Assembly (NCBI GenBank): GCA_965223705.1
Contig: OZ245015.1
Span: forward strand, 2,624,001 to 2,688,000
Length of the DNA: 64,000 bases
Source: Myxococcota bacterium
Lineage (GTDB): Bacteria > Myxococcota_A > UBA9160 > UBA6930
Reading direction: 5' to 3'
Part shown: positions 1,361 to 54,713 of the stretch, piece by piece
Layout: every line of letters begins with the position of its first letter
Position numbering within the stretch: the stretch's first letter is position 1
The notes under the pieces: generated by a model
The model's input: only the letters and a program-made list of their open reading frames with translations
What the model was told of the DNA's origin: nothing
The model's database searches: none
Program-made: the position numbers and the translations under genes

Positions 1361-1376
1361 AGCAAGCCCCATGCCA
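1361..1376 (-). promoter_or_regulatory. Sigma-54 (-24/-12) promoter of the minor pilin operon
   Basis: Minus strand reads TGGCATGGGGCTTGCT (GG-N10-GC), 26 nt upstream of the fimT ATG; a sigma-54 activator (pilR) is nearby. Confidence 0.75.
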
Positions 1377-1414
1377 GGCGTAGAAATCGGTATCGCTGGG
1401 TGTTCGCTTGAGTT

Positions 1415-2962: not shown

Positions 2963-2969
2963 CTTGAAG

Positions 2970-6034: not shown

Positions 6035-6044
6035 GCGCTGTGCG

Positions 6045-7256: not shown

Positions 7257-7272
7257 TCGCTACTCCCGAACT

Positions 7273-8370: not shown

Positions 8371-8381
8371 TCGCTCGCTTT

Positions 8382-10082
<1,701 letters not shown>

Positions 10083-10213
10083 AGTGATCCCTCTCCTGCA
10101 GCAAGGGCCGTAATGCAGGAAACTCAACATCCTGGGCCGGCTATCACGAGACTTGCCGGCGGCAGAAAACCCCTGCGAACCCGCACGGTTATCGGCCTTT
10201 CGAAAAGGGATCT

Positions 10214-37604: not shown

Positions 37605-39533
37605 ATGCCGAAAACACTGCTCCTTGCAGACGACAGCGTCACGATTCAGAAGGTCGTGGGAATCAGTTTCGCAAACGAGGACGTCATCCTCCTCACGGTA
37701 GACAACGGCGACGACGCCATCGCCCGCGCTCGCGAAGCGCGTCCGGACCTGGTCTTGGCGGACGTCGTGATGCCCGGCAAGAACGGCTACGAGGTCTGCG
37801 CGGCGATCAAGAACGATCCCGAGATCAGCGCCACGCCCGTCATGCTCCTCACCGGGACGTTCGAAGCCTTTGACGACAGCCGCGCCAGGGAAGTCGGTGC
37901 AGACGGGCACATCACCAAGCCTTTCGAGGCTCAAGCCTTGGTCGATCGCGTCAACCAGCTGCTCGAGCAGGCCGCTGGCCACAGCGATTCGGCGAGCACG
38001 CCCGAGCCGTCGCCCCAAGCGGAGCCCGCGTCGCCCCTCACCGATGCGTTCGACGAGCCGGGCCCCGCGAACGAGAGCGAGCGCTTCGAATCTCCGGCGC
38101 AGACCCCTCCGGAGTCCTGGACCGCTCCGGACGACTTCGGAACCACGCCGATCCCCGAGCCGACCCACGCGGCCCATCCCGCCGCGCCGCCGGCGGCGAC
38201 GTCCATGACACCGCCGCCGATTCCCGAGGTTGGCGAGTCCAGCGGGTTTGGTTCCGTGCCCCCGCCCGTTTCGGCGGCCCCGACCCCGCCCCCGGTTCCG
38301 GACGCTCTCACCGACGGTGATCTGGGAGACGGTCCGGCCGCGGAGGCTCTCTCGGGCTCCTACGATTTCTTCGAAGACGAATTCGGAGCGAACGCGACGC
38401 CGCCGAGCGAGAGCACGTCGACGAGCTACGGGTTCGGCGCGACAACCGACGGCTCCCTCGAATCCGCGATGTCGGACGAGATACCGTCCAACTTCGATTT
38501 CGGAGACTCCCAGATCGGAAGTCCGGCCTTCCCTTCTGCCGAAACCAACGTCACTGCGTCGAGCAGAAACGAAACCGCGAGCCCCGACAGCTTTTCGGAC
38601 GCCCAGACGATCCCGCCGTCCTTCGACACGGAATTCGACGGCGAGGATGACGAGCCGACTTTCGACGCCACGACCGCCTGGGAGCGACCGCCGACGGAAG
38701 CGACCGAAGAAGCGGCCCCGACCCCGGTGGCACCGCCCTTCGAGGAAGCCCCGACCCCGGTGGCACCGCCCTTCGAGGAAGAACTCGAAACCACCGCACT
38801 TCCCGAGGAAGCCGCCGGGAGCGGAGAGCTCTTGCACGCCGAGGACGTCGTCGAAGCGGCCGAAGACGCGAATTTCGTCGACGACCCCGCTGAACCGGCG
38901 ACGACGCTCCCGCTGCCCGAGCACGACGCCGACGACAGCCTGCCTCCGTTCGAGCATGGCTTCGGAACGGCAGATCGCGACAGGCAGGTCACGCCCTTCT
39001 CCGGGATGGATGCGAGCGGAAGCGGCGCGGCGATCACCGGCATGGATGCGCCGATCGAGGCGGAGCCGTTGACGACGGACGGTCCGGGAGATGAATCAAC
39101 GGGTGCGTTCGGCGACGCGTTCGGTAGTCTCGCCACCGAGAGCCAACGACCCGAGAGCTTTCAAGATCCTGCACCGAGCGGATCGTTTGATGTCGCTCAC
39201 GAGGACGTGGCCCACCTGGACACTCGGACGGGAGTTCGGACCGAGGACGAATTGCCCGGCTCGAGCTTCGCGGAGACCATGCCGATCTCGGATACAGAAC
39301 GCGACGATTCCCCGCAGGGAGATCACGATCTCCGAAGCTCCAATCCGGCCTTCAGGCAGGAGATTCACGACGCCATCGAAAAGATCGCTTGGGAGGCGAT
39401 GGGGCCCGTCGCAGAGGCGATCGTGCGCGACTGCGTCGAGAAGGTGGAGCGCGTCGCTTGGGAAGTCATCCCCGAGATGGCCGAAAAGCTGATTCGCGAA
39501 GAGATCCGCCGTCTGAAAGGCGAAGATCAGTAG
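37605..39533 (+). CDS. romR: RomR-like polarity response regulator (receiver, acidic Pro-rich linker, C-terminal helices)
   Basis: MPKTLLLADDSVTIQKV..GTFEAFD..TKPFE receiver and C-terminal ERVAWEVIPEMAEKLIREEIRRL, matching recalled Myxococcus RomR features. Confidence 0.82.
   Translation: MPKTLLLADDSVTIQKVVGISFANEDVILLTVDNGDDAIARAREARPDLVLADVVMPGKNGYEVCAAIKNDPEISATPVMLLTGTFEAFDDSRAREVGADGHITKPFEAQALVDRVNQLLEQAAGHSDSASTPEPSPQAEPASPLTDAFDEPGPANESERFESPAQTPPESWTAPDDFGTTPIPEPTHAAHPAAPPAATSMTPPPIPEVGESSGFGSVPPPVSAAPTPPPVPDALTDGDLGDGPAAEALSGSYDFFEDEFGANATPPSESTSTSYGFGATTDGSLESAMSDEIPSNFDFGDSQIGSPAFPSAETNVTASSRNETASPDSFSDAQTIPPSFDTEFDGEDDEPTFDATTAWERPPTEATEEAAPTPVAPPFEEAPTPVAPPFEEELETTALPEEAAGSGELLHAEDVVEAAEDANFVDDPAEPATTLPLPEHDADDSLPPFEHGFGTADRDRQVTPFSGMDASGSGAAITGMDAPIEAEPLTTDGPGDESTGAFGDAFGSLATESQRPESFQDPAPSGSFDVAHEDVAHLDTRTGVRTEDELPGSSFAETMPISDTERDDSPQGDHDLRSSNPAFRQEIHDAIEKIAWEAMGPVAEAIVRDCVEKVERVAWEVIPEMAEKLIREEIRRLKGEDQ
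38715..38780 (+). repeat. Perfect 33-bp tandem duplication (APTPVAPPFEE x2) in the romR linker
   Basis: GCCCCGACCCCGGTGGCACCGCCCTTCGAGGAA occurs twice in tandem. Confidence 0.9.
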
Positions 39534-39578: not shown

Positions 39579-40448
39579 GTGTCCGCCACCGCCCCGTTTC
39601 CGGTCCGCCAAAGTTGGCTCCCTCTCCTGGAGCGGGCGCTCGCCGAGGATCTCGGTCCGGGCGATGTGACCAGCGACGCGGTTCTCGCGGCCGACGCCCA
39701 ATCGTCGTGTCAGCTCGAGGCGCGCGAAGATTTGATCCTCTGCGGCCTTCCCGTGGCCCTCGCCACCTTTCAAGCGGTCCGCGGAGATCTCGCGTTCGAA
39801 CCGCGGCAAAGCGAAGGCGCCGCTGTGGCCAAGGGAGACGTCCTCGCGGAAATCCGCGGGAACGCCCGGGCGATCCTGGCGGCGGAGCGCACCGCGCTGA
39901 ACTTCCTCCAGCGGATGTCGGGGATCGCCACCGAGACGCGGCGCTACGTCGACGCCGTGGCGTCGACCGACGCCCGAATCGTCGACACACGGAAGACCTT
40001 GCCGGGCTGGCGCGCGCTAGACAAATACGCCGTTCGGGTGGGCGGCGGGATGAACCACCGCACCGGCCTGTTCGACGCCATCCTCATCAAAGACAACCAC
40101 ATCGCCGCAGCGGGAGGCGTTGCAGAAGCGATCGGCGCGGCCCGGTCCGGTGCCGCGCAACATCTCTGGCTCCAAGTCGAAGTCGAGAGTTTGGATCAGG
40201 CCGCAGCGGCGGTCGACTGTGGTGTTGACTCACTTCTTCTCGACAACCGCAGCGTCCCCGAGCTCGCGCGGTTCGTCGAAGCTTTCGGTGACCAGTGCGT
40301 CCTCGAAGCGTCGGGAGGCGTGACCTTCGATCGGATTGTGGATATCGCAAAGACCGGGGTGCACCGCATTTCGATCGGCGCCCTCACCCACTCCGTTCGC
40401 GCCGCGGACATCGCGCTCGAAGTCCAAGATCCGGAGACAGGCGCATGA
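39579..40448 (+). CDS. nadC: Quinolinate phosphoribosyltransferase
   Basis: ERTALNFLQRMSGIAT, DTRKTLPG, NHRTGL, IKDNH, EASGG, ISIGALTHS. Confidence 0.96.
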   Translation: MSATAPFPVRQSWLPLLERALAEDLGPGDVTSDAVLAADAQSSCQLEAREDLILCGLPVALATFQAVRGDLAFEPRQSEGAAVAKGDVLAEIRGNARAILAAERTALNFLQRMSGIATETRRYVDAVASTDARIVDTRKTLPGWRALDKYAVRVGGGMNHRTGLFDAILIKDNHIAAAGGVAEAIGAARSGAAQHLWLQVEVESLDQAAAAVDCGVDSLLLDNRSVPELARFVEAFGDQCVLEASGGVTFDRIVDIAKTGVHRISIGALTHSVRAADIALEVQDPETGA

Positions 40449-41467
40449 ACGGGGCGGGCGCCGGCGCGATTCTCCGAGCACTGCGGCTCGCCGGCGCGGC
40501 GCGATGTTCCGGAGAACAACTGTCGCGCGAACTCGGCGTCTCGCGCTCGCAAATCTGGAAACACGTCAGCACGCTGCGCGGTCGGGGCTACGACATCGAC
40601 GGCAGCGCGGGCGAAGGCTACAGGCTTCGGAGCAGCCCGGACCGCCTGTATTCCGAAGAGATCCAACCGGGTCTGGGGACCCGCGCCGTCGGACGGAAGA
40701 TCGAGCATCTCGATTCGACGGATTCGACGAACCGTGTCGCACACGAGCGAGCCCGAGCCGGTGCTCCGCACGGCTACACCGTCATCGCCGAAGCTCAGAC
40801 GGCGGGCCGCGGTCGCCTCGGCCGCACTTTCTTCTCGCCGGCGCACGAAAACCTCTACACGTCGATCATCCTGCGGCCGTCGCTGACCACTGCGTCCTGC
40901 GCAACGGCAATCCTCGCGGCGGCGGTGGCTGTGGCGGAGACCGCTGCAGCGAGTGTCGGAGACGACGACCGGGTGACGATCAAATGGCCGAACGACGTCC
41001 TGATCGATCGCCGAAAGACCTCGGGCATTCTGATGGAGCTCGCCGCCGAGGCAACGCGCGTGGACTACCTCGTGCTCGGCATCGGCATCAATATCAACTC
41101 CGACCCGTCGAGCTTCCCCGAAGAATTTCGCGCCAGCGCCACCAGCCTCGCAGCGTCCGCAGGTCGCCCGATCGACCGCGCCCAGGTGGCCCGCACGCTC
41201 TTCACGCTGCTCGAGGACGTCCTCGACCTACACGAGGCCCGGGGCTTCTCGGCGATTCGCGATCGCTTCGATGCGCGGTTCTCGATGCGCGATCAAACCG
41301 TCACCGTTCGAGATCTCGATGGGGGCTCGACCACGGGCACCGCCCTGGGAGTCGCGAACGACGGTGCCCTGCGCCTACGTCACGCCGACGGAAGCGAGCG
41401 AAGGCTCTTGGCGGGTGACGTGACGATCGGAAGCGGCGAGACCCATGCCGCGAGGGTCGCGTCGTGA
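40445..41467 (+). CDS. birA: Bifunctional biotin ligase/repressor
   Basis: N-terminal HTH, DSTN, QTAGRGRLGR, KWPND, KTSGIL. Confidence 0.94.
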   Translation: MNGAGAGAILRALRLAGAARCSGEQLSRELGVSRSQIWKHVSTLRGRGYDIDGSAGEGYRLRSSPDRLYSEEIQPGLGTRAVGRKIEHLDSTDSTNRVAHERARAGAPHGYTVIAEAQTAGRGRLGRTFFSPAHENLYTSIILRPSLTTASCATAILAAAVAVAETAAASVGDDDRVTIKWPNDVLIDRRKTSGILMELAAEATRVDYLVLGIGININSDPSSFPEEFRASATSLAASAGRPIDRAQVARTLFTLLEDVLDLHEARGFSAIRDRFDARFSMRDQTVTVRDLDGGSTTGTALGVANDGALRLRHADGSERRLLAGDVTIGSGETHAARVAS

Positions 41468-42282
41468 AACCCGCGACCCTACTCGCGATCGACGTCGGCA
41501 ACACGAATGTGTCACTCGGACTCTTCGACGACGTCGGCGGGCGCGGAGAACTGACGAACCACTGGCGAATCGCGACGCGGCGTGAACAGACGTCCGACGA
41601 GCTGACCCTCGTGTTGCGTGGCCTATTCGAACTACCCAGTCGCGACGTTTCCGAGATCACGGACGTCATCATCTCGAGCGTCGTCCCACCGCTCCTACCC
41701 ATCTGGGAGCGGGTCTGCCTCAAACTGTTCCCGTCGCCACCGCAGTTCGTCGGCCCGGGAATCCGCACGGGCATGCCCGTCCGATACGAGAACCCGAGGG
41801 AAGTCGGCGCCGACCGGATCGTGAACGCCGTCGCGGCCTACGACCTCGCCCAGGGCGCCGTCATCGCCGTCGATTTCGGCACCGCGACGACGTTCGACTG
41901 TGTATCGGGCCAAGGCGAATACTTGGGAGGGGCGATTTTCCCAGGCATCCATATCTCGATGGAGGCGCTGTTCGAGCGGGCGAGCATGCTCCATCGCGTG
42001 GAGATCGCGCGGCCGCGTCACGTGATCGGTCGCACGACGACGGCGTCACTGCAATCCGGCCTTCTGTACGGCTACGCCGGGATGGTGGACTCGATGGTGG
42101 CGAGAATTCGCGACGAACTCGGCGAGGACGCCGATGTCTTGGCGACCGGAGGGCTCGCACAACGGATCGCGAGCGAGTCGCAAAGTATTCGCAGGGTCGA
42201 GCCCTTCCTGACGCTCGAGGGGCTGCGCATTTTGTTCGAGAAGAATCGTCCGGAAGGGGATGTAACTCAAAAGGAGAGTTAG
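41464..42282 (+). CDS. coaX: Type III pantothenate kinase
   Basis: IDVGNTN, SSVVP, VGADR, VDFGTATTFD, ATGG, LTLEGL. Confidence 0.95.
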   Translation: MKPATLLAIDVGNTNVSLGLFDDVGGRGELTNHWRIATRREQTSDELTLVLRGLFELPSRDVSEITDVIISSVVPPLLPIWERVCLKLFPSPPQFVGPGIRTGMPVRYENPREVGADRIVNAVAAYDLAQGAVIAVDFGTATTFDCVSGQGEYLGGAIFPGIHISMEALFERASMLHRVEIARPRHVIGRTTTASLQSGLLYGYAGMVDSMVARIRDELGEDADVLATGGLAQRIASESQSIRRVEPFLTLEGLRILFEKNRPEGDVTQKES

Positions 42283-42284
42283 TC

Positions 42285-44354
42285 ATGGGCAACGTCGATG
42301 TTTCGAAGCGGCGAAATTTCGCAATCGTCGGGCATAGTGGCGACGGCAAGACGTCACTCGGCGAAGCGTTACTCCACCGCGCCGGCGCCACCGACGAGCT
42401 CGGCAAGGTCGACGACGGGACTTCGAGCCTCGACCACACTCCGGAAGAAAAAGAGCGTCATCACACTCTACACTCCTCAGTGTACAGCTTCGACTACGAC
42501 GGCCACGCCATCACGTTGGTCGACACACCCGGTGATCCGAACTTTCAGGCCGACGGTCGAATCGCCCTCGGCGCACTCGACGCAGCCGTCCTCGTCATCT
42601 CGGCGACCGACGGAGTCAAGGTCGGCTCGGAATCCATGTGGGCGGCGTGCCAGCGGGCGGAAATGCCCGTCGCGATCTTTGTGAACGGCCAAGACCACGA
42701 TCGGGCCGATTTCTCCGCCGCGATGGAATCGGCGAAGACGATGGGCGCGCCGGCCGCTGCGGTCACGATTCCGGTCGGGGCGGGGGAATCGTTCAAGGGC
42801 GTCATCGACTTGTTGCACGACAAGTACATCGTCGATGGAAAGAGCGGAGACGTCCCCGCCGAGCTCGCGGAAGAAGTGGCCGCTGCGCGGGAGCAACTCG
42901 TCGAAGCCGTGGCGGAAGGTTCCGACGAGCTCCTCGAGAAGTATCTCGAGGACGGCGAGCTCAGCGAAGAGGAGGTCGAGCACGGACTCCTCGAAGGCAT
43001 TCGCAACGGCTCGCTGGTGCCGGTCTTCGCAGGCTCAGCGACGCAGCTCGAAGGCGTTTCCTCGCTTCTCTCGGCGATCTGCACCCTCTTGCCCTCCCCG
43101 CTCGATCGACCCGCTCGATCCGCGCGGGAGATGGATTCGGGCGACGAGACCGAAGCGCCGCCGAACCCCGACGCGCCTTTCTCGGCGGTCGTCTTCAAGA
43201 CGATGATCGATCGCTACGCGGGAACGCTCTCGGTGATACGTGTCGTCTCGGGGAAAGTGCACTCCGATCAGACGGTGCTCAACGTGACGCGCGACGGCAA
43301 AGTCCGCTTCGGCAAGTTGATGAGCCTCTCCGGCGCGGGCCACCACGAAAGTGGCGAGGCGGGGCCCGGCGACATCGTGGCGGTCGCGAAGCTCAAGGAC
43401 GTCCACACCGGCGATGTCCTGACCGCCGAAAAGAATGGCTTGCGCCTCGCCGAGATCCCGATCCCCCACGGCGTGCTGTCCTACGCGATCTCCGCGAAGA
43501 ACAAAGGCGACGAGGACAAGGTCTTCAACGCGCTCGGCCGCTTGGTCGAGGAAGATCCGACGCTTTCCGTCGAGCGCGATCCCGCCACAGGAGAGTTTCT
43601 GCTCACGGGAATGGGCGAGCTCCACATCCGGCTGTCCGTCGACCAGTTGGAGCGGAACTACGGTGTGGAGGTCGAACTCAAGACGCCGAAAGTCCCGTAT
43701 CGGGAGACCATCTCCCGGAAGGCGGAGGGCATCGAAGGCAAGCTCAAGAAGCAGAGCGGCGGGAAAGGCATGTACGGAGTCTGCTACCTGTCGGTAGAAC
43801 CGCTTCCCCGCGGGTCAGGCATCGAGTTCGTCGACGAGATCGTCGGGGGCGCGATTCCGCGCAATCTGATTCCCGCCGTGGAAAAAGGCGTTCACGAATC
43901 GAAGGACGCCGGCCCGCTCGCCGGCTATCCGGTGGTGGACGTCCGGGTACGCTGCGTGGATGGAAAACACCACAGCGTGGACTCCAACGAGATGGCTTTC
44001 AAGATCGCGGGCTCGCTGGGCTTCAAGGCCGCGCTCGAAGCGGCAAAGCCCGAGCTCCTGGAACCCGTCATGAACGTCGAAATCGCGATCCCCGAGGACT
44101 ACGTCGGGGACGTGATGGGCGATATCAGCAGCCGCCGGGGCCGGGTCCAGACCTCGGAAGTCCGCGGCAGCTCTCAAGTGATCAAGGCGAGCGTCCCCAT
44201 GGCCGAAATGCTCGAGTATGCGAGCGCTCTCACCAGCCTGACCGGCGGTAAGGGAGCGTTCCACATGGAGTTCTCCCATTACGACCCGATTCCGGCCCAG
44301 CTCCGGGACAAGGTCATTGCGGAGGCCCAGGCGCAGCGGGAAACGGAGTCCTGA
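42285..44354 (+). CDS. Elongation factor G paralogue (EF-G2-like)
   Basis: EF-G architecture (GMGELH, VPYRETI, KKQSGG, HSVDS, LLEPVM) with divergent G-domain motifs; outside the str operon. Confidence 0.9.
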   Translation: MGNVDVSKRRNFAIVGHSGDGKTSLGEALLHRAGATDELGKVDDGTSSLDHTPEEKERHHTLHSSVYSFDYDGHAITLVDTPGDPNFQADGRIALGALDAAVLVISATDGVKVGSESMWAACQRAEMPVAIFVNGQDHDRADFSAAMESAKTMGAPAAAVTIPVGAGESFKGVIDLLHDKYIVDGKSGDVPAELAEEVAAAREQLVEAVAEGSDELLEKYLEDGELSEEEVEHGLLEGIRNGSLVPVFAGSATQLEGVSSLLSAICTLLPSPLDRPARSAREMDSGDETEAPPNPDAPFSAVVFKTMIDRYAGTLSVIRVVSGKVHSDQTVLNVTRDGKVRFGKLMSLSGAGHHESGEAGPGDIVAVAKLKDVHTGDVLTAEKNGLRLAEIPIPHGVLSYAISAKNKGDEDKVFNALGRLVEEDPTLSVERDPATGEFLLTGMGELHIRLSVDQLERNYGVEVELKTPKVPYRETISRKAEGIEGKLKKQSGGKGMYGVCYLSVEPLPRGSGIEFVDEIVGGAIPRNLIPAVEKGVHESKDAGPLAGYPVVDVRVRCVDGKHHSVDSNEMAFKIAGSLGFKAALEAAKPELLEPVMNVEIAIPEDYVGDVMGDISSRRGRVQTSEVRGSSQVIKASVPMAEMLEYASALTSLTGGKGAFHMEFSHYDPIPAQLRDKVIAEAQAQRETES

Positions 44355-44388: not shown

Positions 44389-45471
44389 TTGTCGAAAGCC
44401 AAGATTCAGCTGCGGCTCTCCTCGGAAGCGGAGAAGTACGTCCGGAAGGACGCGCCGGTGGGTGTCCGCCGGCTCGCGGCGGGCGGCGCCCTCCCCTTGC
44501 CTCCCGTCGAGCTCGTCACAGTCCTGTTCGTGCTGTCCCACGACGCCGACACCGAGGTCAAGACGAAGGCGACGGCGAGCCTCGAAGGGCTCCCGGAGAA
44601 CATCAGCCAGACGGTGCTGTCTTCCGAACAGACCCACGCGAGCGTGCTTCATGCGCTCGGACACATCTTCAAAGACAGCGCGAAGCTGACCGAGACGCTG
44701 GCCTTGAACGCGGCGGCGGACGACGAGACGATCGTTTTTCTCGCTTCCCTCCCCCATCGACGCGTGGTCGATATCGTCGCGAACAACCAAGAGCGTCTGC
44801 TCCGCTGTGACGCGATCGCCGAGGCTCTCGGTGAGAACCCCTTAACGGGCCGCGCCACGATCGATCGCATCCTGACGTTCCTCGGCATCGACAAGGCGAA
44901 GGGTGAGGAAGTCGAGGTGGAGGTCGACGCCGTCGATCCGGACGAGCTCACCGACGAGTCCGCCGCCAACGCGTTGCGAGCGCTGCTCGGCGATGACGCG
45001 GGGGAGTTCGCCGAAGCCCTCATCGACGACACGGATGGTGAGCTCAGCGAAGAAGAGGAAGGGAACCTCTTCGCGCTGCTGCAGCGCATGACCGTGATGC
45101 AGAAGATCAAGCTCGCTCGCCTCGGGAACAAGGAAGCGCGCTCTCTCCTCGTCCGCGATCACAACAAGCTCGTCGCGGCAGCCGCGATTCGCAGCCCGAA
45201 GGTCACCGACAACGAGATCGAAGGCATCGCGAAGGCACGCAACGTATCCGACGAGGTCCTCCGAATTATCGCGTCGAATCGCGAATGGACGCGCAACTAC
45301 TCGGTGAAACGCGCTTTGGCGACGAACCCCAAGTGCCCGATCCAGTACGCCATGAAGTTCCTGAACTTCATGCAGGAACGAGATTTGCGCAGCGTCATGC
45401 GCAGCAAAGACGTCCCGGCGGCCATCTCGACCCATGCGCGCCGCTTGTTGCAGAAGAAGGGAAAAATCTGA
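44389..45471 (+). CDS. Hypothetical alpha-helical protein
   Basis: Long ORF with coding-like codon bias; C-terminal MTVMQKIKLARLGNKEAR...NPKCP region; TTG start 44389. Confidence 0.75.
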   Translation: MSKAKIQLRLSSEAEKYVRKDAPVGVRRLAAGGALPLPPVELVTVLFVLSHDADTEVKTKATASLEGLPENISQTVLSSEQTHASVLHALGHIFKDSAKLTETLALNAAADDETIVFLASLPHRRVVDIVANNQERLLRCDAIAEALGENPLTGRATIDRILTFLGIDKAKGEEVEVEVDAVDPDELTDESAANALRALLGDDAGEFAEALIDDTDGELSEEEEGNLFALLQRMTVMQKIKLARLGNKEARSLLVRDHNKLVAAAAIRSPKVTDNEIEGIAKARNVSDEVLRIIASNREWTRNYSVKRALATNPKCPIQYAMKFLNFMQERDLRSVMRSKDVPAAISTHARRLLQKKGKI

Positions 45472-46319
45472 TGGCGGTCGACTACGACAAGACCGAACTC
45501 CATGCGCGGATCGTTTACTGGGGTCCCGAAGGGAGCGGAAAAACCACCAACCTCGAACTGATTCACCGCAAGCTGCGCAGCGATCACCGGGGCGACTTGC
45601 GTACGATGCCGACGCGAATCGATCCTTCGGTCAACTACGAGATCCTTCCCATCGAGCTCGGACGCGTAAGCGGCGTCTACACGCGCATCGAAATCGTCGC
45701 TGTACCGAGTGGTGAGGAGCAGGCCCCGACTCGCAAGCAACTCCTCGATCGGGTCGACGGAATCGTCCTCGTGCTCGACGCGCGACGAGACCGGGTCGAA
45801 GACAACCTCCGATCCTTCGAGGAGCTCGTCGAGTTCCTCGAGGCGTACGGTCGTTCTCTGTCGGAGATCCCGTGCGTCGTGCAGTACAACAAACGGGACC
45901 TCGCGGATCCCTTTGCCGTCGAGGAGCTTCACCGAAAACTCGACGTCGAGGGACTCGCGGCGTTCGAAGCCGTGGCAAACGTGGGCACCGGGGTGCTGCA
46001 ATCGCTGACGACGGTTTCGAAACTCGTCGTCCGCTCGCTCCGCGAGCCGGCGATACACGGGGAGACGGCTCCGCCGGAGCCCCATGTCGAAGAGACGCCG
46101 CCGTATAACGCTCCTCTCGAACCGTCGGATTCGACCGTGGAAGTGCGGTCCGCCTCGGCTCGCGCGAGCTCGCTGGTGCTTCTCCGAGCGGAAACGCCGA
46201 AAATCGAAGGGGATAATCGGCTTCTCGTGCCGCTGGTCCTCGCGGATTCCGCCGGACACGAGCACCATGTAGAGATTCGCGTCGAGCTCGCCGGAACGAG
46301 TCCGGGCTCCTCGCGTTAG
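45471..46319 (+). CDS. MglA-like small GTPase with C-terminal extension
   Basis: IVYWGPEGSGKTTNL, VDGIVLVLDA, QYNKRD, EAVA..GTGV; TGATG coupling to the upstream gene. Confidence 0.85.
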   Translation: MAVDYDKTELHARIVYWGPEGSGKTTNLELIHRKLRSDHRGDLRTMPTRIDPSVNYEILPIELGRVSGVYTRIEIVAVPSGEEQAPTRKQLLDRVDGIVLVLDARRDRVEDNLRSFEELVEFLEAYGRSLSEIPCVVQYNKRDLADPFAVEELHRKLDVEGLAAFEAVANVGTGVLQSLTTVSKLVVRSLREPAIHGETAPPEPHVEETPPYNAPLEPSDSTVEVRSASARASSLVLLRAETPKIEGDNRLLVPLVLADSAGHEHHVEIRVELAGTSPGSSR

Positions 46320-46331
46320 AGGAGCAGAAGC

Positions 46332-48635
46332 GTGCGCAGGGGCGTCGCCCTTTACGGAGTGACCGAAGAGAGCGCGGGGTTGATCCCGCTGCTCGAATCG
46401 CGGCCCGACTTGGAAGTCGTCGCTGTCTACGATCCGGCGCCCGCAGAAGCGCGGGCGAAACTCGAAGCGTTGGGCGGCGACTACGCCGCGCGCCTCGGCG
46501 ACCGGTTCGTGGCCGACCCGCGCGATTTCCTGCGCGTGGTCGGGCTCTCGGCGATCATCGATGCCGGCCGCGACGCACCGCTCGCAGAGCGAATCCCCGA
46601 GGTCGAGTCAAGCGACGTGGAGGTCGTTTCGACCCTGACGGCGCGACTCCTCTGGGGCTACGGGCCCGCCTCCCGCGAGCGCCAAGGCGAACTCCTCCAA
46701 GCGCTCCGCGAGATTGTAGACTCGCTCAACCTCGCGAGCGACGGTGAAGAGCTCTTCTCCAGGATCCTCGACATCGCGATCAGCGTGCTCGGAGCGGACG
46801 GCGGCTCGTTGATGCTGCTCGATGCGGCCGGCGAAACCCTGTCGATACGCGTCGCCAAAGGCGTCGAGCCCGAGTTGTGGTCCAAAGTCCGGACGCCCCT
46901 CGGCCAGGGCATCGCCGGACGCGTGGCATCGGAGGTGCGCGCGGCCCGCGTCCGCGGCAAGGCGGACCCCGAGGAGTTCCACATCCTGCGGGAGCGCTTC
47001 GATGTGAAGGACGCCCTGTCGTTGCCGCTCGTACACAGCGGGAGGATCCAAGGCGTCTTGAACCTCCACAGCACCGCGAACCTCGACACGTTCTCCGACG
47101 ACGACGTGTCGTTCGCCGAAGAACTCGCGCGCGCTTCGGGAGAGATTCTCGCCCGGGCCGAAGAACATCAGCACTTGCGACGGCAAGCGCACCGCTACGC
47201 CCTCGTCACAGAAGTGCGTCAACATCTCGGCGTTCCGCAACCCCTCGAGGAGCGCTTGTCATCTCTCTGCGCTCTCCTCGCGAAGCGGGTGGGACGCGGT
47301 ACCGCAACCGTCTACCTACTCGAACCGGAGAGCGAGGAGCTGCGCTTGACGGCGACCTCGATGGCGACGGGCAGCTTGCTCGCGGAACTCCGAGTACCCG
47401 TCGGTACCGGAATCGACGGTCAGGCCGCCGGCGGCACGCCGGAGCTCCTCCACGGGCCCGACGGCGCGCTGCGCCTAGCCGCGATGCCACTCCCGAGCGC
47501 GGGTGAAACCGTCGGCGTCTTGTCGGTCCAAGTGGGTACCGCGCCGCGCCGTGCGAACGACTTGCCGGTGGGACGCGCTGCGGAGGAGACCCTCCGAGAG
47601 ATCGCAGCCGCCCTGGCCGACGAAATCGCGAAGGCGTGGCGCGAGGAGCGCATGGAGACGCGTGCGACGAAAGCGACCGCGATCAACGAGGCCGGGCTCC
47701 GCCTGATCTCCGCTCGCGAGATCTCTGAAGTCGTGCGGCAATCGACGGCTTCGGGGGCTCTCGTGCTCGAAGCGGACCACGCTTTGCTGCGGTTGCTCGA
47801 CCCGGAATCGAATCGCTACGTCATCCGCTCCTACTACGGCAGTGCTGACCGCGACCAGCGCGAGCAGCTCTTCGCCCTCGACAAAGACGTCAGCGTCACG
47901 GTGATCCGCCAGCGCGAATCTCTACTCGTGCACCGAAGCGATCGCGACGAGCGGTGGAACACCCATGAGGCGTCGGTGCGTTCCATCCTCGGCGCGCCGC
48001 TCCTGCGCGATGGGCGGGTCGTTGGGACCCTCACGTTCTACGACAAAATGGCGGCGGACGCGTTTTTTCCCGGTCACTTCTCGCGCGACGATCTCGAGGT
48101 CTTGAACCGCTATGCGCGTTACGTCGAGCGGGCCGTCACGAACGCGCTGTTCTACCGCCAGGCGAAAGCGCAGAGCAACTTCGATGAGGCGACCGGACTT
48201 CCCAACGCCGAGTATCTCGCCCGGCGCATCGATCAGGAAATCGCGCGAGCGGGGGGACGCCCGAACGCGTTCGCACTGGCGACGTGCCGAATCGAGAACC
48301 TGAGCGAACTCCGCAGTGCGGTGGACGCGGCGCACGCCGAGCGCGTCGTCCAGCGGACGGCCGAAGCGATGCGCGACAAGCTGCGCGACTTCGACATCGT
48401 CGCGCGAACGGCGGACGACGAATTCGCGGCGTTGCTCCCGGAGCCCGGGGATCTCCCGGGCGATCGCGTCGCCGATCTGGCGCGTGCGGTCGCCGAGGAC
48501 ATCGTCCGCAACGAAGCGCTGAACGACCCGATACGAATCGGCTTGGTCTTTGGTTATACGGTGCCCGAGAGCTCGGACGACCCCCGGGAGAGCTTGGTCG
48601 CACGCGCCCGCGAGCCCCGAATCCGCATGCTCTAG
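46332..48635 (+). CDS. Multi-GAF protein with C-terminal degenerate GGDEF domain
   Basis: GAF motifs (GSLMLLD..GQGIAGRVA..GVLNL..FSDDD), DEATGLPN, and RDFDIVARTADDEF; GTG after AGGAG. Confidence 0.85.
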   Translation: MRRGVALYGVTEESAGLIPLLESRPDLEVVAVYDPAPAEARAKLEALGGDYAARLGDRFVADPRDFLRVVGLSAIIDAGRDAPLAERIPEVESSDVEVVSTLTARLLWGYGPASRERQGELLQALREIVDSLNLASDGEELFSRILDIAISVLGADGGSLMLLDAAGETLSIRVAKGVEPELWSKVRTPLGQGIAGRVASEVRAARVRGKADPEEFHILRERFDVKDALSLPLVHSGRIQGVLNLHSTANLDTFSDDDVSFAEELARASGEILARAEEHQHLRRQAHRYALVTEVRQHLGVPQPLEERLSSLCALLAKRVGRGTATVYLLEPESEELRLTATSMATGSLLAELRVPVGTGIDGQAAGGTPELLHGPDGALRLAAMPLPSAGETVGVLSVQVGTAPRRANDLPVGRAAEETLREIAAALADEIAKAWREERMETRATKATAINEAGLRLISAREISEVVRQSTASGALVLEADHALLRLLDPESNRYVIRSYYGSADRDQREQLFALDKDVSVTVIRQRESLLVHRSDRDERWNTHEASVRSILGAPLLRDGRVVGTLTFYDKMAADAFFPGHFSRDDLEVLNRYARYVERAVTNALFYRQAKAQSNFDEATGLPNAEYLARRIDQEIARAGGRPNAFALATCRIENLSELRSAVDAAHAERVVQRTAEAMRDKLRDFDIVARTADDEFAALLPEPGDLPGDRVADLARAVAEDIVRNEALNDPIRIGLVFGYTVPESSDDPRESLVARAREPRIRML

Positions 48636-48642
48636 GGCACTC

Positions 48643-49182
48643 TCATCGACCCGATTTGGCTCCCGGAACGAGCTGCCGGCCGCGGAAGCCGCCGTTCGTC
48701 CGCTTGAACGCAGCGATTTCTTCGACCCTCCCTTCCACCAGCGAGATGACGACGTGATAGGCGTCGGGGAACGGGAACCACGCCTGACTTGCGAAGGCCT
48801 GATCGAGCTCCGAAAAATACGCGCCCGCTCCCACGTGGGAGTGGTAGACCGCGGTGATGCTCTCACCCGACGCAGCGGCTTGTTCCGTCGCGCGCAAGTA
48901 GTCCCCCTCGTTCATGAAGAACGCGGTCTGACCGTCTCTCGGGTACTGGGCCGGATCCTCTTGGTGCTTGCGCGTGACGTCGTTCCGGCAGCGGTAGACG
49001 CTCCGAAAGACATCCTCCGGAGTGCCTCCGATGAGTCCACAGCACTCTTCGGGTGCGGCCTCTCGGGCGTGCGCACAGAGCTCGTTCCACGGAGTCGCCG
49101 AGGCGACGAGGGGCGGCTCCGAGGGATCGTGAAGGATCCGTCGTTGGGCGGAGGGGGAAGCTTCCTCAAGTCGTTGTGCCAA
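48643..49182 (-). CDS. JAB/Mov34 (M67) metallopeptidase
   Basis: PEECCGL and YHSHVGAGAYFSELD (JAMM motif). Confidence 0.88.
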   Translation of the reverse strand: MAQRLEEASPSAQRRILHDPSEPPLVASATPWNELCAHAREAAPEECCGLIGGTPEDVFRSVYRCRNDVTRKHQEDPAQYPRDGQTAFFMNEGDYLRATEQAAASGESITAVYHSHVGAGAYFSELDQAFASQAWFPFPDAYHVVISLVEGRVEEIAAFKRTNGGFRGRQLVPGAKSGR

Positions 49183-49341: not shown

Positions 49342-50364
49342 GTGAAACTCGATACCCAACTCCGCGACTTCAGCCTGGCGGACGTCGCAGGCCAGGTCGA
49401 ACGCTTTGAGAAACTCGGTTTCGACGGCGTCTGGACCTTCGAAGCCGCGAACGACCCCTTCCTACCGTTGGGCGTTGCGGCCAGCGCCGACACCCGCCTC
49501 GAACTGGGCACCAACATTTCCGTCGCCTTCGGGAGGAGCCCGTTCACCATGGCGCAGGTCGCTTGGGATCTTCAGCGCGCGAGCGGCGGTCGCTTTCATC
49601 TGGGCCTCGGCACCCAGGTCCGGGCGCACATCGAACGGCGTTTCAGCATGCCTTGGAGCGCGCCGGCCAAACGTCTCGTCGACTACATCCGCTGCGTTCG
49701 CGCGATCTGGGACACGTTCCAGAACGGGACCCGGCCGGCGTACAAGGGAGAGTTCTACCAGTTCACGCTGATGAACCCGTTCTTCTCCCCCGGCCCTGTC
49801 GATCGGCCGGACATCCCGATCTGGATCGCCGGTGTGAACACCGGGATGTGCCGGGCGGCCGGCGAAGTGGCCGACGGGTTTCATGTGCACCCGATGAACA
49901 GCGCCGGCTATCTGCGGGACGTGGTGCGGCCGGCGATCGCCGAGGGCGCGCGCCAGGCGGGACGCTCCGCGGGTGACGTGGCCCTTTACGCGCCGGTATT
50001 TGCGGTAACGGGCGACGATCAACCGCAGTGGGACCGCAGCGAGGCAGAAGTCCGCCGTCAAATCTCGTTCTACGCGTCGACCCCGAACTACCGGGCGGTT
50101 CTCGAATACCACGACCTCGGGGGCATCGCGAAAGAGCTTTCGGCAAAGGCACGCGCGGGAGAGTGGCGGGAAATGGCAGCACTCATTCCCGACCGATTGG
50201 TGGACGAACTCGCCGTCATCGCGAAACCGTCCGAGGTGCCGTCGGCGCTGCGCCGCCGCTACGAGGGACTCCTCGATCGCGTTTCTCTCTACTTCCCGAT
50301 CCCCGATGATGGAAATGACGATCGCTGGAAACAATTTGTCGCGGACTTTCGGGCGGCGGTATAG
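49342..50364 (+). CDS. LLM-class oxidoreductase, probably F420-dependent
   Basis: NDPFLPL, VAFGRSPF, LGLGTQVRAHIERRF, ISFYASTPNY; GTG 49342 after GGAGG. Confidence 0.85.
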   Translation: MKLDTQLRDFSLADVAGQVERFEKLGFDGVWTFEAANDPFLPLGVAASADTRLELGTNISVAFGRSPFTMAQVAWDLQRASGGRFHLGLGTQVRAHIERRFSMPWSAPAKRLVDYIRCVRAIWDTFQNGTRPAYKGEFYQFTLMNPFFSPGPVDRPDIPIWIAGVNTGMCRAAGEVADGFHVHPMNSAGYLRDVVRPAIAEGARQAGRSAGDVALYAPVFAVTGDDQPQWDRSEAEVRRQISFYASTPNYRAVLEYHDLGGIAKELSAKARAGEWREMAALIPDRLVDELAVIAKPSEVPSALRRRYEGLLDRVSLYFPIPDDGNDDRWKQFVADFRAAV

Positions 50365-50524
50365 CGGCTGTGAGGAGTTGCGCCTAAGCCGGCAAACTAC
50401 CGATTGCGTTGGCAAATTTGCCGGTGCTTTGCTAGCAACGGGTCGCGCGGGAGAAGCGATTCTCCCACGAACGAACGAGGGAACGGGCCCCTTCCGCGGT
50501 GCCCCGAGGACAAGGATCTTGGCC

Positions 50525-51154
50525 ATGACCGCACGCTTCCTGGGCGCCACGTGCTGCGCGCTCTTTGTTCTCCTGGCCTTCCCGGCCATCGCCGACGAAG
50601 AGCGCGGCAAGCAGTTGTACGAGTTGTGCCAGATGTGTCACGGCGACAATGGCGAAGGCATGACGCTCTCGCTGGCACCGTCCATCGCAGGGCAGAGCCA
50701 GTGGTACGTAGAGAGTCAGCTTCGACAGTTCCGCGACGGAGGCCGCGGCGTTCATCCCGAAGACGTGCCCGGTATGCGCATGCGTCCCATGTCGATTTGG
50801 CTCGCGAAAGACGAAGACCTCGTCGCCGTCGCCGAGTACGTTTCGAATCTTCCGCCCGTCGCGCTCGAGCCGACCTTGGCCGACGCCGACGTCGAGAAGG
50901 GCAAAACCATCTACGTCCTCTGTCAGGCTTGCCACGGTCCGGAAGGGGAAGGAATGGAACCCCTCAAAGCGCCGAAGCTCACCCACGTCTCGGACTGGTA
51001 TCTCGTATCGCAGCTCAAGCGCTTTAAAGAGGGCGTTCGCGGGACGAACCCCAAAAACCCGAACAGTGCGCTCATGCGTCCCATGGCGATGTCGCTCGCC
51101 GACGAGCAGGCCATGAAAGACGTGTCCGCATACATCATGACGCTCTCGAAGTAG
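50525..51154 (+). CDS. Dihaem cytochrome c4-type
   Basis: Signal peptide, CQMCH and CQACH, duplicated AP..Q/WY..QL..F..G.R..M..M domains. Confidence 0.9.
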   Translation: MTARFLGATCCALFVLLAFPAIADEERGKQLYELCQMCHGDNGEGMTLSLAPSIAGQSQWYVESQLRQFRDGGRGVHPEDVPGMRMRPMSIWLAKDEDLVAVAEYVSNLPPVALEPTLADADVEKGKTIYVLCQACHGPEGEGMEPLKAPKLTHVSDWYLVSQLKRFKEGVRGTNPKNPNSALMRPMAMSLADEQAMKDVSAYIMTLSK

Positions 51155-51169
51155 GACGGAGGCTCACAG

Positions 51170-51274
51170 ATGGCCAAGGCTTATCCGCCGGAGGAACTGG
51201 CGGCTCGCATCTTCTACATCAGCATGGTCGGCGTCGGCGCGTTTATCGCCGCCGTCTTCATGTTCGTCCTCTAA
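51170..51274 (+). CDS. 34-aa single-TM peptide in the oxidase operon
   Basis: GGAGG SD, then MAKAYPPEELAARIFYISMVGVGAFIAAVFMFVL*; fills the gap between cytochrome c and coxB; below the ORF-track cutoff. Confidence 0.7.
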   Translation: MAKAYPPEELAARIFYISMVGVGAFIAAVFMFVL

Positions 51275-51293
51275 CGCGCGGGAAGGCTGACCC

Positions 51294-52019
51294 ATGCTCA
51301 TCGAAAGTCTCGTTCCGGCCGCATCGAGCTACGCGAAAGACATCGATTTCGTTTGGGAGCTCATTTTCTGGCTCGTCGGGTTCTGGTTCATCCTGTCGGA
51401 AGGCGTGTTCTTCTGGTTCCTGATGAAGTTCCGGAAGAAAGACGGCCAGAAGGCGCAATACATCACCGGCGAAGAGAAGTACCAGAAGAAGTGGATCACG
51501 TATCCGCACCTCCTCGTACTGGTGTGCGACGTCTTCATCGTCGTGGCCGCGGTTCGGGTCTGGTACGACGTCAAGCAGGACCTCCCGCCGACGGACCGCA
51601 CGGTGAAAGTCATCTCTTCCCAGTGGGCGTGGACGTTCATCCACCCGGGGCCGGACGGAAAACTCGACACGGCGGACGACATCGCGATGAACGATGAGCT
51701 CCATGTAGAAGTCGACGAGATGTACCACTACCTGCTCGAGTCGCGAGACGTTCTTCACGACTTCTCGGTTCCGGTCTTCCGCTTGAAGCACGACGCGATT
51801 CCCGGCCGCACCATCACCGGCTGGTTCCGGCCGACGGCGACCGGTGAGTACGACATCCAGTGCGCCGAAATCTGCGGGATCGGCCACGGGCTGATGGGGG
51901 CACGGATCTTCATCGAGTCGAAAGAAGATCACGAGAAATGGATGGCGAGCCACGCGACGAAGCCCGACGCCGTCCTCTTGGCAGCGAGCCAGAACCCGAA
52001 CCAGCGACGGGAGCAGTAG
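51294..52019 (+). CDS. coxB: Cytochrome c oxidase subunit II
   Basis: Two TMs, SQWAW, DVLHDF, CuA motif CAEICGIGHGLM. Confidence 0.95.
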   Translation: MLIESLVPAASSYAKDIDFVWELIFWLVGFWFILSEGVFFWFLMKFRKKDGQKAQYITGEEKYQKKWITYPHLLVLVCDVFIVVAAVRVWYDVKQDLPPTDRTVKVISSQWAWTFIHPGPDGKLDTADDIAMNDELHVEVDEMYHYLLESRDVLHDFSVPVFRLKHDAIPGRTITGWFRPTATGEYDIQCAEICGIGHGLMGARIFIESKEDHEKWMASHATKPDAVLLAASQNPNQRREQ

Positions 52020-52021
52020 GC

Positions 52022-53725
52022 ATGGCCGAATCGGTATCAGCGCATCCGAGCCACGACGCCCACGATCATCACGAGCAGAGCTTCATCTGGAAGTATGTCT
52101 TCTCGACCGATCACAAGATGATCGCGCGGCAGTACATGTTCACCGGCATGGCCATGGGCCTGATCGGTGCGTTCTTCGCTTACGCGTTCCGCATGCAGCT
52201 CGCCTTCCCGGGGATCGACGTTCCGCTGTTCGGTCTGGTGACCCCGGCGGTCTACAACTCGCTGGTCACGAACCACGGCACGATCATGATCTTCTGGGTC
52301 GCGATGCCCGTTCTGATTGCGGCGTTCGGGAACTTCCTGATCCCACTCATGCTGGGCTGCGACGACATGGTGTTCCCGAGGCTCAACATGCTGAGCTACT
52401 GGATCTTCCTGCTCTCGGCGATCGTGCTCTTGGCCTCATTCTTCGTCCCGGGCGGCGCGTTTGGCGGCGCATGGACGGCCTACCCGCCGCTCTCTGCGAA
52501 AGCGGAATACAGCCTGACCCCATTGGGCTCATCGATATGGGTCGTCGCCGTCGCCCTCGAGTTCGTCGCCTTCTTGCTCGGCGGCATCAACTTCGTCACC
52601 ACGGCGATGAACTCCCGCGCTCCGGGGATGAAGCTCTACGACATCCCGGTCGTCATCTGGATGATCGTGATCGCGAGCATCCTGTTCATGGCGTCGGTCG
52701 GCCCGCTGATCGCAGGAGCCGTCATGCTCTTCATGGACCAGCAGGTCGGAACGGCGTTCTTCGACCCCAACAAGGGCGGCGACCCCATACTCTGGCAGCA
52801 CTTGTTCTGGTTCTTCGGGCACCCCGAAGTCTACGTCGTGCTCCTGCCCGCTCTGGGGATCACGGCCGAGATCATCTGCACGTTCGCGCGCAAGAAGCTC
52901 TTCGCGTACCGAACGGTTCTCATCACGACGATCGCGACCGGCGTGCTCTCTTTCACGGTGTGGGCGCACCACCAGTTCGTCGCCGGGATCGACCCGCGTA
53001 TGGCCAACATCTTCACGATTACGACGCTGCTCATTTCCGTGCCGATCGCGGAACTCTGCTTCGTCTACATCGCGACGCTCTACGGGGGCTCCATCACATT
53101 CAGCACCCCGATGTTGTGGGCCCTCTCCTTTATCGCAACGTTCCTCATCGGCGGCGTCACGGGCATCTTCCTCGGAGCCAGCGGCGCCGACATCTACATG
53201 CACGATACGTATTTCGTGCTCGCCCACTTCCACTACACCTTCTATCCGATCGCCATCATCGGAACCTTCGCGGGCTTCACGTACTGGTTCCCGAAGATGT
53301 TCGGCAAGATGATGGATGATCGGCTGGGGAAGATTCACTTCTGGGGAACCATCATCCCCTTCAACTGCATCTTCATCCCGCTCTTCTATCTGGGCGCCGC
53401 GGGGCAGCATCGTCGGATTTTCGACTACACGAATTTCCCGGAGCTCGCGACGCCGGAGATGCAGGCGATCCGCGTGTTCGCGACGGTCTCGCTCCTGGTG
53501 ATGCTCGGCTTCCAGCTGGTCTTCTTCTTCAACGTGTGGAAGAGCCTGCGAAGTGGCGAGAAGGCACCGGACAATCCGTGGAAAGCGAATTCCCTCGAAT
53601 GGGTCGCTCCCACGCCTCCGCCGCACGGCAACTTCAAGGAGATGCCGACCGTCTACCGAGGACCGTACGAATTCAGCCACCCGGATCGCGAGCTCGACTA
53701 CTGGCCGCAGAACGAACCGGCATAA
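52022..53725 (+). CDS. coxA: Haem-copper oxidase subunit I (A family)
   Basis: STDHK, HGTIM, GHPEVY, WAHH, HFHY, RR. Start trimmed to ATG 52022. Confidence 0.95.
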   Translation: MAESVSAHPSHDAHDHHEQSFIWKYVFSTDHKMIARQYMFTGMAMGLIGAFFAYAFRMQLAFPGIDVPLFGLVTPAVYNSLVTNHGTIMIFWVAMPVLIAAFGNFLIPLMLGCDDMVFPRLNMLSYWIFLLSAIVLLASFFVPGGAFGGAWTAYPPLSAKAEYSLTPLGSSIWVVAVALEFVAFLLGGINFVTTAMNSRAPGMKLYDIPVVIWMIVIASILFMASVGPLIAGAVMLFMDQQVGTAFFDPNKGGDPILWQHLFWFFGHPEVYVVLLPALGITAEIICTFARKKLFAYRTVLITTIATGVLSFTVWAHHQFVAGIDPRMANIFTITTLLISVPIAELCFVYIATLYGGSITFSTPMLWALSFIATFLIGGVTGIFLGASGADIYMHDTYFVLAHFHYTFYPIAIIGTFAGFTYWFPKMFGKMMDDRLGKIHFWGTIIPFNCIFIPLFYLGAAGQHRRIFDYTNFPELATPEMQAIRVFATVSLLVMLGFQLVFFFNVWKSLRSGEKAPDNPWKANSLEWVAPTPPPHGNFKEMPTVYRGPYEFSHPDRELDYWPQNEPA

Positions 53726-53737
53726 GGCAGGAGAACC

Positions 53738-54307
53738 ATGCGACCTATTGCGACAACGCGCAGCGTAACGGGCATCCCCACCGGCCGATTGGCGGTCTGG
53801 TGGGTCATCGCGTCGGAAATCGTGATCTTCGGCGGCCTGCTCTGCTCCTACATCATGCACCGCTTGGCCCACGGAATCTGGGCGGATTACGCGTCCCACA
53901 CCAACATGTACATCGGGGCGTTCAACACGCTGGTGCTCCTCTCCTCGAGCTTGTCCGCTGTGCTGGCGCATCAGTGTGCAGAGCGCGGTGACGGTCCCGG
54001 TGCGGCGAAGCGGCTGCTGATCACGTCGGCGGGCGGGCTCATCTTCATCCTCGTCAAGACCTACGAATGGACGACGGAGATCGGGCTCGGCTACACCATC
54101 ACCGCCAACACCTTCTGGTCCTTCTACTACACGGCCGCCGGTCTGCATGCGCTCCATGTGATCGCCGGTGTCGTCATCATGTTGATCGTGGCGAAGGCGG
54201 CGTTCGAAAACCGCGAGCTCCATCGCGTAGAACTGATCGGGATCTACTGGCACTTCGTCGATCTGGTCTGGATCTTCCTCTTCCCCTTGCTCTACATCGC
54301 AAAGTAG
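53738..54307 (+). CDS. coxC: Cytochrome c oxidase subunit III
   Basis: ASEIVIFGGL, NTLVLLSSS, GLHALHV, YWHFVDLVW. Confidence 0.92.
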   Translation: MRPIATTRSVTGIPTGRLAVWWVIASEIVIFGGLLCSYIMHRLAHGIWADYASHTNMYIGAFNTLVLLSSSLSAVLAHQCAERGDGPGAAKRLLITSAGGLIFILVKTYEWTTEIGLGYTITANTFWSFYYTAAGLHALHVIAGVVIMLIVAKAAFENRELHRVELIGIYWHFVDLVWIFLFPLLYIAK

Positions 54308-54319
54308 TAGGAGCGAACG

Positions 54320-54703
54320 ATGTCCGAACACGCTGAACACGCGCATCCGAACTACTGGAAAGTCTACTGGTGGTTGCTGGCCCTCCTGCTGGTCAGCATC
54401 CTGGGGCCCGAAGTCGGCGCGCGCATGAATCTGCCGGCGCTGACGCTCTTCACGGCCTTCGGAATTGCCGTCGTGAAGGCCTACCTCGTCGCGCGCAACT
54501 TCATGCACGTCAACATCGAGCCGAAGTTCATCACGTATATGTTGGTGACGTGTCTCGTCTTCATGCTGCTATTCTTCGCCGCAGTCGCTCCCGACGTCAT
54601 GAAAGAGGACGGCAGCAACTGGCTCAAGCCGGCATGGCTCGAACAGCAGCGCGCCTACGAAGCGGGCGAGATCGGCGAGGCCGCCCACGGCGGAGGCCAC
54701 TAG
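54320..54703 (+). CDS. Cytochrome c oxidase subunit IV family protein
   Basis: Three TMs; VKAYLVARNFMH motif. Confidence 0.85.
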   Translation: MSEHAEHAHPNYWKVYWWLLALLLVSILGPEVGARMNLPALTLFTAFGIAVVKAYLVARNFMHVNIEPKFITYMLVTCLVFMLLFFAAVAPDVMKEDGSNWLKPAWLEQQRAYEAGEIGEAAHGGGH

Positions 54704-54713
54704 CGAGACGCCC

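Follow-up and report, generated by a model that had tools for sequence, protein, structure and literature searches.

MglA-family proteins are familiar as switches that cycle, and for group 1 of the family the arginine finger had been reported to be invariant. What, then, is an MglA-like protein that lacks this arginine, and what could it do at the locus where it is encoded? The locus in question lies in a stretch of 64,000 nucleotides (the window) of contig OZ245015.1 from a Myxococcota bacterium (assembly GCA_965223705.1), in which three genes on the + strand encode a helical protein of 360 amino acids (aa; 44389..45471), an MglA-like GTPase of 282 aa (45471..46319) and a GAF-GGDEF protein of 767 aa (46332..48635). 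An earlier note, made from the sequence of the window, had proposed that the three form a new signalling module around a dead GTPase. We report that this dead paralogue is real, conserved and apparently undescribed; that, as far as its sequence tells, it is a pseudo-GTPase, with a G fold, the catalytic residues gone and a gene under selection; and that the helical gene upstream is an orthologue of the Myxococcus gene rasA. On balance we favour a pseudo-GTPase adaptor which would not cycle, would be blind to the GTPase-activating protein (GAP) MglB and would work with RasA in the control of pili, exopolysaccharide (EPS) and polarity, with a receptor of cyclic di-GMP (c-di-GMP) as an input gained in the class of this bacterium.

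The loss of the catalytic residues can be read directly from an alignment. When the 282-aa GTPase was searched against the sequences of the Protein Data Bank, the matches were MglA chains only (four distinct sequences), and phmmer aligned it to M. xanthus MglA (6h17) with an E-value of 1.5e-38, approximately 38% identity, an offset of one residue and no gaps, so that the mapping of residues from MglA to the paralogue is unambiguous. Arg53 of MglA becomes Pro52 (codon 45624-45626) and Gln82 becomes Gly81 (45711-45713), with Thr54 replaced by Ser53, Asp58 by Glu57, Thr78 by Ala77 and Gly81 by Ser80. The replacement of TDRTLFFD by IDPSVNYE and of TVPGQ by AVPSG, read by eye in the earlier note, is seen in this alignment, as is the retention of G1 (GPEGSGKTT) and G4 (NKRD); a third change, of Gly21 to Glu20 (codon 45528-45530), had been overlooked there. 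Gly21 of MglA occupies the position of Gly12 in Ras. In the MglA-MglB structure Arg53 and Gln82 face the catalytic water, Thr54 and Asp58 hold Mg2+, and strand beta-2 is the route of MglB binding (PMC6785124).

The same losses run through the family. We compared 62 orthologues, one per genome, comprising this copy, 21 from the best matches and 40 picked across families, with 21 canonical MglAs of the same class. Gly21, Arg53 and Gln82 are each kept in none of the 62, position 21 being other than Gly in 62/62, and are all kept in 21/21 canonical proteins, so the loss of both catalytic residues, as the earlier note had it, is not a matter of chance. Of all the motifs scored, only Lys185 of the helix-alpha5 pocket is not universal among the canonical proteins (18/21); the orthologues have it in 62/62. 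The beta-2 phenylalanines are mostly gone from the orthologues, Phe56 being kept in 1/62 and Phe59 in 7/62.

An AlphaFold2 model built from 46 sequences has a confident G domain (residues 1-194; 45471..46052, +), a low-confidence linker, which is rich in Pro, Ala and Glu and predicted to be disordered (46053..46169, +), and three confident C-terminal strands (predicted local distance difference test, pLDDT, >90) that form a conserved beta module of about 43 aa (46170..46295, +). The model matches MglA in Foldseek (6izw, E 2e-20) and by VIA-align (5ymx, Z 26.1, root-mean-square deviation 2.3 Å over 189 residues). The C-terminal extension, put earlier at about 90 aa, measures about 88 aa.

An MglA-family match was found in 145 of 151 genomes of the class, and in 132 of these 151 it reached E <= 1e-46, a threshold stronger than canonical MglA scores with the dead paralogue as query; diverged copies were found later in five more class genomes. 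The gene is not decaying, because the ratio of non-synonymous to synonymous substitution rates (dN/dS) is 0.05-0.32 in 15/15 orthologue pairs, and a frameshift or pseudogene was rejected on this ratio and on the open frames. In a FastTree phylogeny of 67 rows, which leaves out 40/62 orthologues and 10/20 canonical class MglAs and carries no one-clade test, the dead paralogues form one clade, separate from canonical MglA (Shimodaira-Hasegawa, SH, support 0.96); the clade takes in four loci that belong to three families outside the class and lies, weakly, near a catalytically intact Myxococcaceae paralogue (support 0.71). Near-invariant positions (90-100%) are Leu35, Arg40, Arg88, Glu118, His154, Arg155, Ser183, Lys184 and Arg191, and those of helices alpha1, alpha4 and alpha5 differ from MglA and are thus specific to the family. 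Public databases name its members 'ADP-ribosylation factor-like protein' or 'hypothetical', from Myxococcota or Myxococcales.

The linker spans 20-158 aa in 58 class orthologues, and linker and 43-residue beta tail occur in every complete class orthologue, barring two omitted as poorly aligned. A profile of the tail matched 53/58 class genomes, this one included, with one strong match per genome; among 243 other genomes of the phylum it gave 15 matches at E <= 0.01, of which three were confirmed to lie on a GTPase of this kind, the others being all weak. The four loci outside the class have the same order of G domain, linker and tail, directly behind a rasA homologue. Some members there carry acidic linkers of approximately 500-650 residues (L083:6980-9643; L125:4741-7023) and are followed by phoH and not by the GAF gene. 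In five named Myxococcaceae genomes the matches translated (5/15) are intact paralogues only, and the tail profile found nothing better than E 0.09. The tail itself has no match in Pfam and no usable one in the Atlas, and searches with the whole model barely probe it; its fold is unnamed and is not to be called a new one.

The genome of the window encodes three MglA-family proteins, one from a canonical mglBA pair, one an orphan resembling SofG with intact motifs (L003:1477-2157; G000:C1, ~2.063 Mb) and one the dead paralogue. The genes adjoining the orphan presumably encode a methylmalonyl-CoA mutase and MeaB, which they resemble. No mglB is adjacent to the dead paralogue, as had been observed, the sole mglB match of the genome lying 1.38 Mb away beside canonical mglA; at 49 loci of the dead-paralogue family no mglB match was found, under conditions in which a positive control (L089) matched. 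Four further members of the MglA family, their catalytic motifs intact, extend 200-460 residues past the G domain (L165, L172, L180, L181), and two of them are found in genomes that carry the dead paralogue too.

The gene immediately upstream is what ties the paralogue to motility. Its 360-aa product has no Pfam match and is modelled as two alpha-solenoids of the HEAT/ARM type with an acidic linker between them, the C-terminal solenoid being strongly basic (net charge +17); fold searches returned generic HEAT/armadillo matches with low TM-scores. It is 37% identical, over 363 columns, to a gene of Myxococcus sp. Y35 that lies between coaX and frzS. The homologue was first noticed adjoining one FrzS-like gene, and a motif scan then gave 31 named frzS loci, nearly all from Myxococcaceae, in 21 of which (one split) it converges on frzS, usually after birA-coaX; the other 10/31 gave no match to a rasA homologue, and most of them end at a contig edge. 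In M. xanthus frzS is MXAN_4149 and rasA is MXAN_4150; mutants in rasA are described as similar to those in dif and sglK, and how the gene acts in EPS, pilus motility and development is said to be unclear (10.64898/2026.08.28.747804). The same source ascribes a DUF2336 domain to RasA, and the profile of this domain (PF10098) matched neither the 360-aa protein nor 50 homologues in a scan to which the Myxococcus copies were external. Since DUF2336 goes unmatched and the M. xanthus contig ends inside frzS, it is by synteny and full-length similarity that the helical gene is identified as an orthologue of rasA (MXAN_4150).

Homologues of rasA occur in 174/201 genomes of the phylum. One family (f31) has divergent MglA matches, but none of the 13 + 5 genomes searched matched rasA, and an assignment of this family to Myxococcaceae was dropped. 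Some genomes have, elsewhere, another and shorter match to the C-terminal solenoid of RasA, with E-values of 1e-7 to 1e-12 (L190-L194; G321, G369, G357, G370), and in one metagenome-assembled genome the rasA homologue and coaX seem to be split by stop codons (L199:3291-4661), possibly through sequencing error. A record titled Comamonas sp. KCTC 72670 (L221) has a Myxococcus-type birA-coaX-rasA-frzS locus, and its name may be wrong. With a Myxococcus query no clear frzS was found in the genome of the window, where the best receiver matches reach 32%; an argument from a Frz-less genome was dropped, CheW domains being present in two clusters.

At every locus, rasA lies directly upstream of the GTPase (71/71: 62 and five in the class, four outside it), and the distance from its stop to the GTPase start is -4 to +1 in 55/62. 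Here the genes overlap by TGATG at 45469-45473, and 12 nt (46320-46331) separate the GTPase from the GAF-GGDEF gene; all three open reading frames were confirmed. The three-gene neighbourhood proposed earlier is thus conserved for rasA throughout, and for the GAF gene within the class, where it adjoins the GTPase in 53/63 informative loci (four more end at contig edges), but not outside it (0/4). The gene at 37605..39533 (+), the first of the co-oriented run, encodes a receiver, an acidic Pro-rich linker and a conserved C-terminal motif, an architecture from which we take it to be romR. In 40/51 genomes romR lies on the same contig and strand 4.1-10.2 kb upstream, and in the other 11 on different contigs. 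The link to polarity or motility that romR and a pil cluster in the window had suggested is made stronger by the identity of the helical gene as rasA and by the synteny of romR. Six of the 151 class genomes (87-95% complete) have no MglA-family match, and the three of these that were searched have no romR match either: the paralogue is lost together with the polarity module.

For the 767-aa protein downstream, Pfam returns two GAF stretches and a GGDEF domain, and internal similarity suggests a third GAF-like segment. Its GGDEF motif is degenerate (ADDEF), with an RxxD I-site (48384-48395) five residues ahead. Among 32 full-length copies GG[D/E]EF is intact in none, RxxD is kept in 31, Glu636 in 32 and Arg639 in 31, a degenerate domain with an I-site that fits the earlier proposal of a GAF/c-di-GMP receptor; the protein is accordingly annotated as a predicted receptor. 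The genome has 19 GGDEF matches, so that a source of c-di-GMP is likely.

How might these parts work together? As an adaptor, the paralogue would be unable to hydrolyse GTP and would ignore MglB, since the beta-2 phenylalanines have been lost along with the catalytic residues. Partners would bind away from the active site, at helices alpha1, alpha4 and alpha5 and the tethered beta tail, and through the paralogue RasA would be kept at the RomR/MglA pole or close to it; the GAF-GGDEF protein, earlier proposed to control the GTPase, would add a c-di-GMP-dependent input in this class, the whole running beside a normal RomR-MglAB system. The erosion of the P-loop described below, the invariant helix surfaces and the loss of the beta-2 phenylalanines argue for an interaction module that would not rest on a GTP cycle. 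A more specific version, which we put forward tentatively and hold to be rather less probable, is that the subfamily is part-way from GTP binding to a nucleotide-free state and forms one complex with RasA and the c-di-GMP receptor, taking the place of FrzS beside RasA and feeding c-di-GMP into RomR/MglAB. If true, RasA would gain its first molecular partner and would be shown to bind an MglA-type fold. A complex prediction for RasA and the dead GTPase (paired alignments of 45 and 46 rows), with controls not folded, scored 0.00 against a mark of 0.32 and is unused as evidence.

Several observations weigh against the adaptor, and those that concern nucleotide binding favour the best surviving rival, a hydrolysis-dead, GTP-loaded MglA that is 'always on' and shows its GTP conformation to MglA effectors. 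Eukaryotic Rnd proteins are a precedent for such a state. This copy keeps Lys24, Thr25, Ser53, Glu57 and NKRD, that is, all the nucleotide- and Mg-binding residues, and probably binds GTP, and the whole set (Lys, Thr/Ser, both Mg ligands and NKxD) is kept in 21/62 orthologues. G4 and G5 are nearly invariant among the 62, Asn being present in 62, Asp in 60 and the G5 Ala in 61, with the G4 Lys in 44. The substitution of Gly21 is the proposed lock of Bdellovibrio MglA (PMC3983030), and the best Foldseek matches are GTP-gamma-S structures, a weak sign. Nor, across the 62 orthologues, does erosion of G1 or G4 go with absence of the GAF gene, another point that does not suit the adaptor.

We nevertheless consider the GTP-loaded state unlikely. 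GK[T/S] is kept in 34/62 orthologues and lacking in 28; GK[T/S] together with NKxD remains in 23/62. On a tree made without those columns, the state of the P-loop has at least 13 changes. Eleven of the 62 have Arg at the Mg-binding Thr, and dN/dS of the domain is still 0.12-0.22 in those pairs; in MglA itself K25A and T26N abolish function, although several such mutants are also unstable (PMC3000849). Six further relatives lack G4, four of them the P-loop Lys too, and keep both the tail and the place behind rasA; these eroded copies (L126-L129, from G041, G039, G069 and G031; L124 and L130, from G223 and G173) are, by their motifs, the far end of a pseudo-GTPase series. The switch surface used by the partners of MglA is altered as well. 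The earlier suggestion of a constitutively GTP-bound protein is therefore unsupported as a property of the family. The sequences suggest both binding and non-binding states within it, and nucleotide binding, likely kept in this copy and likely lost in many relatives, would be optional for its function.

Somewhat less probable again is that there is no single module: two genes, for the dead GTPase and for the GAF-GGDEF protein, would have been inserted into an old romR-nadC-birA-coaX-fusA2-rasA run and would serve separate processes. The wide occurrence of rasA homologues, mostly without such a GTPase adjoining, is what favours this, and in Myxococcaceae it is frzS that takes the next position. 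Many lineages without the GTPase have rasA after coaX or after the second EF-G, and two families have rasA where the G-domain profile matched no MglA-family gene, with rasA in 15/18 genomes and MglA-family matches in 0/23 (f19), or in 10/11 and 0/14 (f26). Since rasA so often occurs alone, the adjacency may reflect an operon of old standing into which the GTPase was inserted. Conservation is as good for the housekeeping genes of the run as for the signalling genes, and the GAF gene is not adjacent in 10/63 informative class loci or in 4/4 outside; in five genomes without a local copy it was found elsewhere in two and gave no match in three. Moreover, the genomes are kin and the 29 loci taken first had been the top-scoring matches, so that the locus counts are not independent. 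Set against passive synteny are the GTPase itself, which never occurs apart from rasA (71/71), three outside families included, the conserved stop-start overlaps, and the fact that both new genes encode signalling proteins in a run that already held romR and rasA.

The least probable alternative, that GTP is still hydrolysed through shifted residues (Arg49, Gln/His84) or an arginine in trans, for example from the basic C-terminal solenoid of RasA, is given some room by the frequency of Arg49 (43/62) and of Gln or His at 84 (46/62) and by MglA groups 2-5, which lack the arginine finger and include one member with GTPase activity (PMC4316618), but Arg49 occurs with Gln84 in 16/62 only, groups 2-5 keep GTPGQ where this family has lost Gln82, and neither the side chain at position 21 nor the recurrent loss of the P-loop fits a working enzyme.

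How far does the adaptor that we favour resemble what is known? With group 1 MglA of M. xanthus, whose GAP is MglB, the paralogue shares the fold, a gap-free alignment, Lys185 and, in this copy, G1 and G4. It differs from it by the absence of Gly21, Arg53, Gln82, Thr78 and the beta-2 phenylalanines and by its linker and beta tail, and it is not coupled to mglB and coexists with a normal mglBA pair. Group 1 proteins have 150-240 aa, mostly with mglB within four genes, and an intrinsic arginine finger beside the G2 threonine is conserved in all their members (PMC4316618); the paralogue, at 282 aa, descends, to judge by its sequence, from group 1 yet departs from it in the defining arginine, TVPGQ and size.

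The nearest precedent is found in Bdellovibrio bacteriovorus, where an MglB-less MglA with Ser21, the TPR protein Bd2492, RomR and the degenerate GGDEF receptor CdgA form a hub that controls the pilus pole, MglA binding directly to the TPR protein and the latter to RomR and the receptor (PMC3983030). Both systems have a substituted Gly21, no coupled MglB, a helical-repeat neighbour, RomR and a degenerate GGDEF protein. In the hub, however, MglA is the sole copy, mglB is gone from the genome and the G motifs are reported as conserved (PMC3983030), whereas in the present genome the dead copy comes on top of a canonical one and has lost both catalytic residues, the genes are adjacent and the repeat protein is RasA, which is HEAT/ARM-like and not a TPR protein. 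By analogy the module may work like the hub, without belonging to it.

SofG and a third Myxococcaceae MglA paralogue, presumably MXAN_2694, are likewise orphan MglA-family proteins with C-terminal extensions, and the third paralogue shares an RPxHRG stretch with the dead one; unlike it, both keep Arg53 and TVPGQ, go unmatched by the tail profile and lie on separate branches. RasA (MXAN_4150) resembles the helical protein over its full length and has the same position after birA-coaX, but in Myxococcaceae its next gene is frzS, in place of the dead GTPase found here. The SgmT and CdgA receptors also have an inactive GGDEF domain with RxxD kept, in contrast to which the present protein is rich in GAF domains and has no kinase domain, its binding of c-di-GMP being predicted. 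Class I pseudoGTPases, AAGAB among them, contact their partners at sites other than the switches (PMC12490416). The dead paralogue would likewise use the G fold as an interaction surface off the switches; AAGAB is eukaryotic and of unrelated function, and the present family, with partial G motifs, may span binding and non-binding states. No description of such a paralogue was found in the literature, in a search that covered few subscription papers and main texts only, so that a member could be listed in the sequence tables of PMC4316618; the passages covered of PMC13408092 and 10.64898/2026.07.10.737566 make no mention of one, and for a possible parallel in Geobacter (GSU1930-1933) the search gave no paper.

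A conserved dead paralogue beside a working mglBA would represent a pseudo-enzyme layer in bacterial polarity control, and one that joins three topics of Myxococcus biology: RomR/MglA polarity, RasA in social motility and EPS, and the control of pili by c-di-GMP. The gradation from intact to eroded P-loops among natural orthologues also offers a model for a small GTPase becoming a scaffold, and the locus raises a tractable question, namely whether RasA binds an MglA fold.

Between romR and rasA lies a housekeeping block of nadC, birA, coaX and a second elongation factor G (39579..44354, +), which is context and stands outside the claimed signalling module. The second EF-G (42285-44354), between coaX and rasA, is absent before rasA in 8/40 class loci and recurs before rasA in several other families of the phylum. 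The pil cluster (pilB-pilT-pilC-pilS-pilR and pilin-like genes) occupies 145-10688, some 34 kb from the GTPase trio, in the same window as romR, as had been pointed out. A prokaryotic JAB-domain gene (48643-49182, - strand) converges on the trio and recurs 1-7 kb downstream at many class loci. Further along, a cytochrome c/haem-copper oxidase cluster (50306-55301) and a helicase with an exonuclease-like C-terminal part (55674-58607) were read by eye.

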